Shown in pieces: positions 2,883-4,577 of a DNA stretch of 5,063 bases. The stretch is taken from IMG/VR virus record IMGVR_UViG_2778261276_000004; one strand, 5' to 3'. The notes beneath the pieces were generated by a model, which was given only the letters and a program-made list of their open reading frames with translations, was not told the origin of the DNA and searched no databases. The translations under genes and the position numbers were made by a program. The DNA is from a virus (taxonomy: Duplodnaviria > Heunggongvirae > Uroviricota > Caudoviricetes). The first letter of the stretch is position 1, and each line of letters opens with the position of its first letter.

Positions 2883-3067
2883 GACCTCTCTTCTCTAACT
2901 AAGGCACCGAACTAAGAAAAGTTTGGTGTTTTCTCTTGCCATAATAACTAAGTTAAGTTAGATTTTATATCAAAGATAACGAACAGGCAGGACGCCCACG
3001 AAGTAGCCGCCTGGGGCATATGAAGTCCAGGATGATTCGTTGAGTCATGTTGTGCCACTAGGCACTC
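2883..3067 (+). promoter_or_regulatory. OL/PL-like operator-promoter region downstream of cI
   Basis: AACTAAG recurs at 2897-2903, 2910-2916 and 2946-2952. The 14-mer ctaagttaagttag (2948-2961) matches the OR site ctaagttttattag at 11 of 14 positions. Plus-strand promoter candidate: -35 TTGCCA (2936-2941), 17-bp spacer, -10 TAGATT (2959-2964), with the operator overlapping spacer and -10. Hairpins at 3015-3036 (CCTGG...CCAGG) and 3052-3065 (GTGCC-acta-GGCAC) lie in the leader. Confidence 0.45.
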
Positions 3068-3088
3068 ATGTTAAAGCAGGTGTATGAA

Positions 3089-3364
3089 ATGAAAGTCCAG
3101 ATTTTAAACAATAACTGTGAAGTCGTTTGGTCATACGACATAGCCGCCCCTGTAGATCAGAGCGGCGATAGCTGGACCAATGGGAAACATCAGATTATGG
3201 CTGGAGTTGTGTTCTCTTTACGCCGTGCTTTGGAACAGGCTGAAGTATTTCCATCAGACCCTGAATGGAAATGGCCTTTTTCTATTTGTCCAAATTCGGA
3301 GAGCACATTTCAGAAAATTGGTCAGAAAGTCGCACTCGAAGAGCATCAGCCAACTGTTTCCTGA
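3089..3364 (+). CDS. hypothetical small protein, first ORF of the early-left transcript
   Basis: ORF track gives 3068..3364. The ATG at 3089 is preferred because AGGTG (3078-3082) lies 6 nt upstream. No arginine-rich motif, so it does not look like an N-type antiterminator. The 3' end overlaps the convergent ORF at 3282..3527 by 83 nt, so one of the two may not be real. Confidence 0.4.
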   Translation: MKVQILNNNCEVVWSYDIAAPVDQSGDSWTNGKHQIMAGVVFSLRRALEQAEVFPSDPEWKWPFSICPNSESTFQKIGQKVALEEHQPTVS

Positions 3365-3527
3365 TTTTTTCAGGTAACTCGTCGGCATCGCAGAAACAAC
3401 AACGCTCGATCATGTTGAAAGCCGATTCGTAGAACTGTTTCTGCTGAGTGTCGCTGAGACAGGAAAAGAGCGACGTTACGATGATTTTATTAATTGCATT
3501 ATCAAGTTCTTTTTCATCAAAAGTCAT
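3282..3527 (-). CDS. hypothetical small protein (81 aa), convergent to the early-left transcript
   Basis: Strong RBS on the minus strand (AAGGAAAA, about 5 nt before the ATG at 3527). Translation is protein-like (MTFDEKELDNAINKIIVTSLFSCLSDTQQKQFYESAFNMIERCCFCDADELPEKIRKQLADALRVRLSDQFSEMCSPNLDK). AT-rich codon usage suggests an acquired accessory gene. Confidence 0.5.
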   Translation of the reverse strand: MTFDEKELDNAINKIIVTSLFSCLSDTQQKQFYESAFNMIERCCFCDADELPEKIRKQLADALRVRLSDQFSEMCSPNLDK

Positions 3528-3699
3528 TTGATTTTCCTTTTATGTATACGGGCTTAAAAGGATACCACCGAGCCTGAAGTGGTGAAAAGACAGGCACATA
3601 ACAGCTAAGTATTTTCAACCAAAGAGAATCCTTAGCGTTGTGGTGAATGCGGCTCAGCGCACGCGGGTTAAGGTTGAGGCTGACAGTCGACCTTCTGTG

Positions 3700-3827
3700 G
3701 ATACCCACCCGCCTGGTGTGCAACCTTCGCCAGGCACCGGGAGGCACCCGGCACCACAACTTTATGCTGTGTGTAGTCTTGGCGGTACCAGTTTGTACCC
3801 TTGCTTCCGGCTGGTATCGCCCTTTTT
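3700..3827 (+). ncRNA. candidate small RNA ending at an intrinsic terminator (possibly DicF-like); 5' boundary undefined
   Basis: GC-rich, hairpin-rich segment with no protein-like ORF on either strand. GGCGGTACCAGTTTGTACCC (3781-3800) resembles, from memory, the GGCGGTATCAGTTTTACTCC segment of E. coli DicF. Its location in the early-left operon of a lambdoid prophage matches where dicF sits in the Qin prophage. Confidence 0.3.
3781..3827 (+). terminator. Rho-independent terminator (plus strand)
   Basis: Stem GGCGGTACCAG (3781-3791) pairs with CTGGTATCGCC (3811-3821), 11 bp including one G-U pair, with a 19-nt loop. It is followed by C then TTTTT (3823-3827). Confidence 0.55.
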
Positions 3828-4040
3828 ACAAAACAGAGAAGAGCATCACCGGACGACGGGCTTATAACCCAATCCATCCGGGCGGCTGCTACCGCAGGTG
3901 TTCTTCTCTGTTTTGTGGAGAAACTAACTGCCCCTGCGGGGGCATTTATGGAAATGTAATTGACTCAATAATCGCCGGACGGTGAGGGCTTCCTTTTACC
4001 CGAATTCAGCGCGGTGCAGCGCATATACGTGGAGAACAAA

Positions 4041-4577
4041 ATGTCATTTATTAAAACTTTTTCCGGGAAGCATTTTTATTATGACAGGATAAATAAAGAC
4101 GACATCGTTATTAACGATATCGCGGTTTCCCTTTCAAATATCTGTCGCTTTGCAGGACATCTTTCACACTTCTACAGTGTCGCCCAACATGCGGTGCTTT
4201 GCAGCCAGCTGGTGCCACAGGAATTTGCTTTTGAAGCTTTAATGCATGATGCAACAGAAGCATATTGCCAGGACATCCCCGCACCACTGAAACGACTTCT
4301 TCCTGACTATAAACGGATGGAAGAAAAAATAGACGCCGTAATCCGTGAGAAATACGGGTTACCTCCTGTTATGAGCACGCCAGTGAAATATGCCGATCTC
4401 ATTATGCTGGCAACCGAACGCCGCGATCTCGGGCTTGATGATGGCTCTTTCTGGCCTGTACTGGAAGGTATCCCGGCAACAGAGATGTTCAAAGTGATTC
4501 CACAGGCACCGGGCCATGCCTACGGGATGTTTATGGAACGTTTTAACGAGTTATCGGAGTTACGCAAATGCGCATGA
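4041..4577 (+). CDS. yfdR: HD-domain phosphohydrolase, YfdR-like 5'-deoxynucleotidase
   Basis: HD motif visible (FYSVAQHAVLCSQL ... EALMHDATEAYCQDIP). The ORF track begins at a GTG at 4014; the ATG at 4041 with GGAG 6 nt upstream gives 178 aa. Gene name is from memory of the K-12 CPS-53 prophage HD-domain protein, not from a search. Confidence 0.8.
   Translation: MSFIKTFSGKHFYYDRINKDDIVINDIAVSLSNICRFAGHLSHFYSVAQHAVLCSQLVPQEFAFEALMHDATEAYCQDIPAPLKRLLPDYKRMEEKIDAVIREKYGLPPVMSTPVKYADLIMLATERRDLGLDDGSFWPVLEGIPATEMFKVIPQAPGHAYGMFMERFNELSELRKCA

Follow-up and report, generated by a model that had tools for sequence, protein, structure and literature searches.

Related phage RNAs

DicF of Escherichia coli K-12, a small RNA (sRNA) of prophage Qin, is made from the PL-like dicBp transcript and binds Hfq. 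The 5′-end of its 190-nt form is generated by RNase III and that of its 53-nt form by RNase E, both forms stopping at the terminator, and in read-through RNA it is again RNase III that generates the 3′-end of a 72-nt form. The loop and 3′ arm of DicF carry the region that pairs with ftsZ and pykA. A second group of RNAs comprises STnc100 (Rfam RF02076) and PasD1 and PasD2 of enteropathogenic E. coli (Pearl Mizrahi et al.), which have ancestry and a consensus structure in common with STnc100 (Zhu, Shabalina and Storz; bioRxiv 10.64898/2026.05.13.724894). In the same preprint PasD is described as prophage-encoded, abundant and Hfq-bound, with many partners in RIL-seq (sequencing of interacting RNAs after their ligation), and even PasD and STnc100 are said to have different seeds. 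Phage λ PreS (LPR1) is an Hfq sRNA produced from the early-left operon in lytic development, which binds Hfq via its U-tail and acts on host mRNAs (bioRxiv 10.1101/2024.10.31.621285). Here these RNAs are compared with a locus in a 5,063-nt stretch of viral DNA (IMG/VR virus record IMGVR_UViG_2778261276_000004; the whole stretch is called the window), which is the immunity/early region of an SfV/SfII/SKA5-type lambdoid prophage and in which an STnc100/PasD-type core is followed by a linker, a terminator and a long hairpin.

The best explanation for this locus is, in our judgment and with moderate confidence, a composite structured noncoding RNA at the head of the early-left operon of an SfV/SfII-like prophage, probably an sRNA derived from the early-left promoter (PL). 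Its position is that of DicF: cI (2256-2882), a candidate promoter and the RNA follow one another in synteny with dicA-dicBp-dicF. According to the original prediction the segment was noncoding and specified a structured RNA within a lambdoid early-left operon, and this is supported; the prediction had missed the dominant part, a pseudoknotted core at 3637-3760, as well as the long hairpin after the terminator.

The structured core

The body of the element (3637-3760, + strand) is, on the strength of covariance models, covariation and the predicted fold, a divergent member of the STnc100/PasD family. The Rfam STnc100 model matches 3615-3830 over its full length (model positions 1-206) with 41.7 bits (E = 9.5e-7); close relatives score 45.2 (SKA5), 39.5 (SfV), 37.5 (sal3) and 34.4 bits (K-12 Qin). 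Our own covariance model R1 gives the window 84.3 bits, and model R2, which was built without the window and without its whole subgroup as a guard against circularity, gives 77.2 bits (E = 7e-19). When species-representative genomes were scanned with the two best-conserved blocks, at least 120 loci came to light in many genera of the Enterobacterales, often several per genome, most of which score above the STnc100 threshold.

The fold was derived from 85 non-redundant cores, and all of its helices form in the window. Helix P1 (3637-3645/3752-3760) closes the core and leads through the junction GAAU (3645-3648) into P2 (3649-3653/3659-3664), which has a bulged A3661 and the pentaloop UCAGC (UNNGC in the family). 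The three base pairs of P3 (3665-3667/3708-3710) enclose a variable hairpin; P4 occupies 3711-3717/3729-3735 and P5 3737-3741/3747-3751, with the loop AGGCA. The last of these is the CCGGG-AGGCA-CCCGG element at 3737-3751 that had already been recognized as a hairpin from the letters alone. A pseudoknot joins AAGGUUG (3670-3676), just after P3, to CAACCUU (3721-3727) in the loop of P4.

The original prediction had proposed that homologues be aligned in search of compensatory base changes, and these are abundant. Across 117 distinct copies 96.9% of cells are paired, against 42-47% in slid controls, and 22 of the 26 core pairs show double changes (501 cells), counts that lean towards the fold as the alignment was fitted to the structure. 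RNAalifold on a MAFFT alignment agrees with the core fold, and P1 and P5 covary in copies that were found by the model rather than by the pattern. Examples are P1 as GCUAUG/CAUAGC and P5 as CCUGG/CCAGG or GGUGG/CCACC around a fixed AGGCA loop. The structure line of the Rfam STnc100 entry shows no pseudoknot. The mean longest helix of the pseudoknot is 6.39 against 4.76 +/- 0.10 when partners are permuted (0/500 as high), its mean duplex energy is -8.8 against -5.0 +/- 0.2 kcal/mol (0/200 as good), and 98 distinct helix strings occur among the 117 copies. The segment as a whole is also unusually stable: the minimum free energy (MFE) of 3600-3835 is -94.7 kcal/mol (z = -3.9) and that of 3820-4040 is -83.4 kcal/mol (z = -4.5), and in neither case did any of 200 shuffles fold as well.

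STnc100 and the window RNA have in common an intrinsic terminator preceded by a five-helix core with the same GAAU junction and the same loops in P2 (UNNGC) and P5 (AGGCA). They differ in P2, which is CCCCC/GGNGGG in STnc100 and GCGGC/GCNCGC in the window, and in location, since STnc100 belongs to the late region, with Q, tRNA, stx or lysis genes nearby, whereas the window copy is early-left, after cI. STnc100 is a gene with its own promoter, unlike the window core, and the window has an additional 5′ hairpin and the long hairpin after the terminator. PasD, with which the comparison rests on its published description, likewise lies in the late region, next to Q and lpxR.

An early-left subgroup

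Family members with P2 of the type GCGGC/GC(N)CGC form a subgroup. In E. coli, Lelliottia, Pantoea and Buttiauxella its members follow a cI-type repressor gene of the same strand at a distance of 500-1000 nt. About a quarter of family copies have a sigma-70 promoter ending approximately 8 nt before GGUGAAU, which places the RNA start at P1, and many have a terminator 30-70 nt after the core. This fixed-position promoter is present in 34 of 126 family copies, versus none of the 10 subgroup members, and the GCGGC-P2 members have no upstream promoter motif in common. In the window no promoter was found at the fixed position; the best match elsewhere (8/12; AAGACA-17-TATTTT, -10 at 3610-3615) was rejected as the core's own promoter, being absent from relatives. 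As the subgroup has neither the fixed-position promoter nor a shared upstream motif, we infer transcription from the early-left promoter.

The likely source in the window is TTGCCA-17-TAGATT (2936-2964, + strand), a 9/12 match in a consensus scan, which directly follows the terminator hairpin of cI (approximately 2904-2932). In SfV and Ayreon a terminator and then a promoter are annotated at the equivalent place after cI. From sequence and position this element is probably the PL analogue from which the RNA locus is transcribed.

Other copies of the core depart from this arrangement. In HK639 the core lies in the late region, in the leader of the late operon. Phage mEp460 (L005 2853-2993), and Stx2a_1447 at the same place, have a more divergent, syntenic core: in mEp460 P1 and the GAAU junction are the same, P2 is GCGCA/UGCGC and P5 is replaced by CCGG-AGAUCAGCA-CCGG; it scores 21.9 bits with our own model and gives no Rfam hit. 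A plasmid of Pantoea sp. App145 (L035 946-1992) carries seven cores in about 1 kb as a tandem array, and dense arrays are also present in L055, L027, L033 and L120. Some of the gaps between tandem cores measure 4-17 nt, with no room for a promoter or terminator, which suggests polycistronic synthesis followed by processing of the units. Transfer RNA genes adjoin cores in 7 of 30 loci.

Linker, terminator and downstream hairpins

The core is followed by a linker, UUUAUGCUGUGUGUAGUCUU (3761-3780, + strand), which is AU/GU-rich and unpaired in the MFE fold and is a candidate seed and/or RNase E site. Its part UUGCUGUGUGUAGUCUU (3764-3780) is kept in ST64B/sal3, Kp4866, Flotzy and phiNP, where the terminator stems or the 5′ domains differ, and alignment to the flanks of DicF makes the linker the positional equivalent of the 5′ seed part of DicF. 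A Rho-independent terminator comes next, with a 13-bp stem at 3781-3793/3809-3821 (-20.6 kcal/mol) and five U's at 3823-3827; a terminator at 3781-3827 had been predicted, and the same interval is covered by the terminator part of the STnc100 model.

Beyond it lies a long hairpin (3823-3921), whose 25-bp stem (3823-3847/3897-3921 in the MFE fold) encloses two small hairpins (3849-3881 and 3882-3895). Because this stem makes use of the U-tract of the terminator, the hairpin is restricted to read-through RNA. A perfect duplex of such length is a typical RNase III substrate, and the stem is a candidate RNase III site. The hairpin is more stable on the + strand (-51.2 versus -45.8 kcal/mol), and 60 phage records have it at 83-98% identity, among them phages of Salmonella, Klebsiella and Citrobacter with an unrelated terminator stem.

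A small GC hairpin, UGCCCC-UGCG-GGGGCA, follows at 3929-3944. Its stem is GCCCC/GGGGC, CGACC/GGUCG or GGCGG/CCGCC, a sequence that differs from lineage to lineage and always pairs, with double changes in 4 of its 6 pairs, and in relatives it is closely followed by the next gene's ribosome-binding site. For the 25-bp stem and this hairpin together 96.9% of cells are paired, against 50-58% in slid controls, with nine double-change pairs (0/500 shuffles as good); four pairs of the long stem have compensatory changes. A 7-bp stem at 3892-3898/3933-3939, with a nested TTCTC/GAGAA hairpin, had been proposed for this region and is present in the sequence, but relatives do not preserve it (65% of cells paired, no compensatory changes), and it was rejected; it competes with these two much better supported structures.

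The small hairpin coincides with a mosaic (recombination) joint at 3926-3941. In SfV, SfIV, mEp460, cdtI and Stx2 phages yfdP-like and yfdQ-like genes are inserted between it and the yfdR leader, and in SfV (L004) the 16-nt hairpin sequence is found at both joints (24640-24655 and 23336-23351). A duplication in the style of putL/putR, considered as phage BLAST matches fell in two places per record, was rejected in favor of this mosaic joint, with a two-gene insert in SfV between 3941 and 3926. The yfdR leader (3945-4040, + strand) always travels with yfdR and not with the upstream RNA modules: in SfV, SfIV, mEp460 and an Stx2a phage the segment stands directly before the yfdR homologue, two inserted genes away from the hairpins.

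A copy of the core in the K-12 dicF-dicB region

In E. coli K-12 the core recurs between dicF and dicB (NC_000913.3 1649451-1649584; L134 2952-3085), and this copy likewise belongs to the GCGGC-P2 subgroup. It is unannotated, scores 73.1 bits with R1 and 68.0 bits with R2 (34.4 bits, below threshold, with Rfam STnc100), and has an 11-bp P1 and a compensatory P5 (CCUGG/CCAGG). DicF position 72 maps to the first bases of the 5′ strand of its P1, which suggests, from the coincidence of these positions, that the K-12 core may be the RNase III substrate that yields the 72-nt form of DicF.

The order of modules differs between the two prophages, being DicF and then the core in Qin and the core and then the terminator in the window. 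A degenerate core was sought upstream of dicF in Qin and gave no hit even with the filters off, and no relationship is detectable between the core and the 5′ domain of the 190-nt DicF. That same 5′ domain is found in cdtI, Stx2c and 2H10 phages directly before the window-type terminator and long hairpin; different 5′ domains are thus exchanged before a shared, DicF-like 3′ module. The annotated "dicF-like region" of phage P1 (AF234172.1 68739-68833) matches the 5′ domain of the 190-nt DicF, and P7 (NC_050152.1 72453-72568) and D6 (MF356679.1 6915-7035) match the K-12 dicF-dicB core at about 80% identity; these RNA modules therefore circulate also in P1-like plasmid prophages.

Proposed mechanism and its main rival

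The expression of such an RNA may be pictured as follows, every step going beyond the fold and the synteny, which are shown. Upon inactivation of the cI-type repressor, transcription from the promoter downstream of cI would proceed through the small open reading frame(s) (ORFs) and the core. Most RNA polymerases would stop at 3827, and 5′ trimming would leave a stable RNA of approximately 190-215 nt consisting of core, linker, terminator and U-tail, that is, with the layout and size of the 190-nt DicF. An RNase E cut in the linker could free a 3′ fragment of about 60 nt, the size of DicF. The product might act as an Hfq-type base-pairing RNA via its linker, as do PasD and DicF, on targets other than ftsZ. 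Those polymerases that read through would make the 25-bp hairpin, which swallows the U-tail and is likely to be cut by RNase III, separating the RNA from the yfdR message.

For action in trans PasD offers, by analogy, the best precedent. PreS is another precedent as a phage sRNA of the early-left operon, although, by its description, it is a simple sRNA rather than a pseudoknotted multi-helix fold.

Several points weigh against a PL-derived sRNA. The STnc100 score of 41.7 bits is narrowly below the Rfam gathering threshold of 47, and a tail of five U's is short for a strong Hfq-binding terminator. The compact pseudoknotted fold and its invariant loops are unusual for a plain base-pairing sRNA and hint at a partner that is a protein or an enzyme. 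The core lacks a terminator in Qin, Lelliottia, Pseudescherichia and Buttiauxella, where it leads straight into the ribosome-binding site of the following gene, an arrangement at least as much to be expected of a cis-acting leader as of a trans-acting sRNA. The ends of the RNA, its abundance and its binding to Hfq are predicted. In the open-access literature no transcript evidence was found for early-left RNAs of the ST64B type.

The main rival, appreciably less probable in our estimation, is accordingly a purely cis-acting leader, in which the locus would serve as a 5′-untranslated region and processing module of the early-left operon and have no role in trans. The core would then serve RNase III/RNase E as an entry site, shield the downstream message as a 5′ structure and, together with the terminator, form an attenuator setting the amount of yfdR-operon RNA. 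The terminator-less copies speak for it, the core standing immediately before a Shine-Dalgarno sequence and start codon in K-12 Qin (dicB) and in loci L017, L018, L043, L066 and L070; so do the constant position at the head of the operon, the failure to find a promoter of its own, the RNase III cut for 72-nt DicF, which maps to P1 of the K-12 core, and the conservation of the 25-bp read-through hairpin. Against it, other members of the family stand alone as genes whose promoter stops about 8 nt short of P1 and which have a terminator of their own; STnc100 and PasD accumulate as discrete RNAs, PasD being bound to Hfq; and the conserved single-stranded linker has the look of a seed. A leader function is compatible with a role in trans, and the two are not mutually exclusive.

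Is the RNA an orthologue of DicF?

The resemblance of the 5′ arm of the terminator to the core of DicF, to which the original prediction drew attention, is real but short. The sequence TTGGCGGTACCAGTTT (3779-3794) is identical to dicF positions 14-29 at 15 of 16 places, the similarity extends into the linker, and the arm GGCGGUAyCAGUUU is common to both RNAs. Together with the shared position downstream of a cI-like repressor (DicA) and a PL-like promoter (dicBp), and the similar size and layout of structured 5′ domain, linker and terminator in the 190-nt form, this likeness could point to a true orthologue of DicF, the 3′ part of which (approximately 3765-3827) would be released to block ftsZ translation and cell division. 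Such orthology is very unlikely. The Rfam DicF model (RF00039) gives the window 19.7 bits (E = 0.75, at 3768-3822), far below the gathering score of 48 and compared to 76.7 bits for K-12 DicF, and the loop and 3′ arm of the window terminator, the part that in DicF pairs with ftsZ and pykA, are unrelated to those of DicF. A crude duplex test with the ftsZ leader gives -34.7 kcal/mol for the window against -33.9 +/- 4.7 for shuffles (p = 0.43), a test that barely separates the real DicF (-38.5 against -32.0 +/- 4.3 kcal/mol, p = 0.07). The window RNA is the counterpart of the Qin dicF region, as predicted, but by the Rfam model not a member of the DicF family.

Antitermination

A put-like processive antiterminator is as improbable as orthology with DicF. 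In it the core would bind RNA polymerase and carry it past the terminator at 3827 and later ones, in place of N. A put-like mechanism has been suggested in the literature for phages of the ST64B/LLS type, which lack an N homologue; the core moreover resembles putL in standing where the early-left operon starts, with a terminator right after it, and HK022 putL/putR and the putL-like RNA of HK639 are likewise folded RNAs at the start of early operons in lambdoid phages without N. In fold and size, however, they differ, five helices and a pseudoknot in about 125 nt contrasting with two stem-loops in about 70 nt, and there is no similarity to HK022 (BLAST, R1, R2) or to the HK639 RNA at 34187-34312 (R1, R2). 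HK639 carries the core in its late-operon leader instead. Each phage has a single copy, the rightward operon has none, and stand-alone relatives terminate normally: they end at their own terminators and accumulate as discrete sRNAs, from which it follows that the core does not abolish termination.

Coding potential

The weakest alternative, a decayed protein-coding gene, is highly improbable. It takes its support from a PGAP pseudogene call (RefSeq "frameshifted hypothetical protein," 3640-3959), from a minus-strand ORF at 3668-3877 that matches phrog_3651 (PHROG family 3651; E = 2.5e-45), from a phrog_33599 match for 3801-3959 and from ORFs annotated here in SfIV, SKA5 and cdtI; yet Pfam reveals no match for any ORF overlapping 3540-4013, all six frames give "homologues" because the DNA itself is conserved, and none of them stays open. 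A conserved frame was sought in the window, mEp460, ST64B, sal3, Buttiauxella, Lelliottia and Pantoea copies and not found, the stop-free stretches shifting in frame and length between relatives. Substitutions are compensatory for RNA helices, and length differences in the variable region are not multiples of three. About 190 bp of orf40 of cdtI coincide with a real yfdP-like gene of the opposite strand, and the counterpart of orf40 is cut to 65 amino acid residues in the near-identical phage Ayreon. On the sequence evidence we conclude that the RefSeq pseudogene call and the PHROG 3651 ORFs are annotation artefacts, as they go back to ORFs of this kind, antisense to part of a real gene and cut short in near-identical phages.

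The noncoding reading, for which a decayed gene had been named as the alternative to be looked at, therefore stands. The GC content, 0.55-0.58 over 3600-3900 (200-nt windows) against 0.40-0.46 in both flanks, bears out with the Pfam and frame results the earlier description of a GC-rich segment devoid of protein-like ORFs. Two RNA identities were also rejected: tRNA or tmRNA, as ARAGORN finds none in the window or in relatives bearing T-loops (see below), and PasB, which sits in a structural-gene operon.

A possible modular system of leader RNAs

The family itself is known from Rfam, and the locus is not a new kind of element. As far as open-access text shows, and allowing for earlier descriptions, what is new is the early-left subgroup below the Rfam threshold, the pseudoknot, the copy in the K-12 dicBF operon and the modular relation to DicF. 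We raise as a tentative idea, more doubtful than the interpretation of the locus itself, that DicF, STnc100 and PasD may be parts of one modular phage leader-RNA system, in which a portable pseudoknotted core acts as a processing or protein-binding platform and is combined with interchangeable 3′ modules. If this were true, lambdoid prophages lacking N would place the core at the head of the early-left operon, including the K-12 dicF-dicB region, where it would be an RNase III entry site, a 5′ protective fold or the ligand of a host factor; linker and DicF-type terminator modules would supply different seeds, and DicF would be one such 3′ module.

The STnc100/PasD family is herewith extended to a second, early-operon niche in several genera of Enterobacterales, and a well-supported pseudoknot is added to its structure. 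The K-12 copy links two phage RNA families that have so far been treated as separate: the much-studied dicBF operon holds the same fold, unannotated, where RNase III reportedly cuts. It provides a testable handle on how the expression of DicF and dicB is separated, and on the function of STnc100-type RNAs. The RNA reading also corrects a broken-gene annotation in RefSeq at a locus common in E. coli, as 3057 of 5426 complete genomes of this species contain DNA similar to 2883-4100, the query used.

Upstream elements

A 5′ leader hairpin (3604-3616/3624-3636, + strand) precedes the core in the MFE fold and in the upstream alignment. Farther upstream are a conserved hairpin, ACCACCGAGCCTGAAGTGGT (3564-3583), and a box, GACAGGCACATAAC (3589-3603); this element (3564-3603, + strand) is kept beside the early-left cores of sal3, Lelliottia (L017), Buttiauxella (L066) and Raoultella (L013). 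Read on the minus strand, the hairpin at 3564-3583 followed by ATCCTTTTAA is terminator-like and lies just upstream of the minus-strand ORF at 3282-3527.

In sal3, Kp4866 and Buttiauxella the position of the leader hairpin is taken by an insert of approximately 110 nt with two T-loop hairpins (Salmonella phage sal3, L130 ~2560-2669; the same in L136, L066 and L070). It is closed by a 9-bp helix, CGAUGAGAG/CUCUCAUCG, and its hairpins carry canonical tRNA T-loop sequences, CUGG-UUCGAUU-CCAG and GUCCG-UUCAAUU-CGGAC; neither ARAGORN nor Rfam recognizes the insert.

Genome context

The leftward genes of the window include a cro-like gene (1958-2158), a ymfL-like gene and an O-like replication gene. 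The cI/LexA-type repressor gene (2256-2882) is transcribed rightward, followed in the same direction by a small ORF (3068-3364), by yfdR (4041-4577; RefSeq annotation) and by further early-left genes. In one RefSeq genome the end of the prophage is marked by an integrase gene adjoining a tRNA-Thr gene.

The small ORF at 3068-3364 and a convergent one on the minus strand (3282-3527) overlap by 83 nt, and both have strong matches to PHROG families without known function (phrog_3195, E = 6e-70, and phrog_3311, E = 1e-55). Of the pair, the + strand ORF alone is annotated in RefSeq and SfV, and the minus-strand ORF is annotated in SKA5; the latter, if real, would be opposed to the direction of the early-left operon.

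Rfam scanning also revealed matches above threshold to the C4 antisense RNA and IsrK in SfV (L001 1251-1439) and at L005 324-512 and L006 269-457. This module is not present in the shown part of the window prophage; it adjoins an antirepressor gene in the rightward operons of SfV, mEp460 and an Stx2a phage. Finally, repeat units resembling GACGGGTCAGATTTTGA are found at 640-720 of the window, inside the O-like replication gene. They are probably the iterons of the origin, and they explain the chance matches to mir-5880 on both strands in the Rfam scan.

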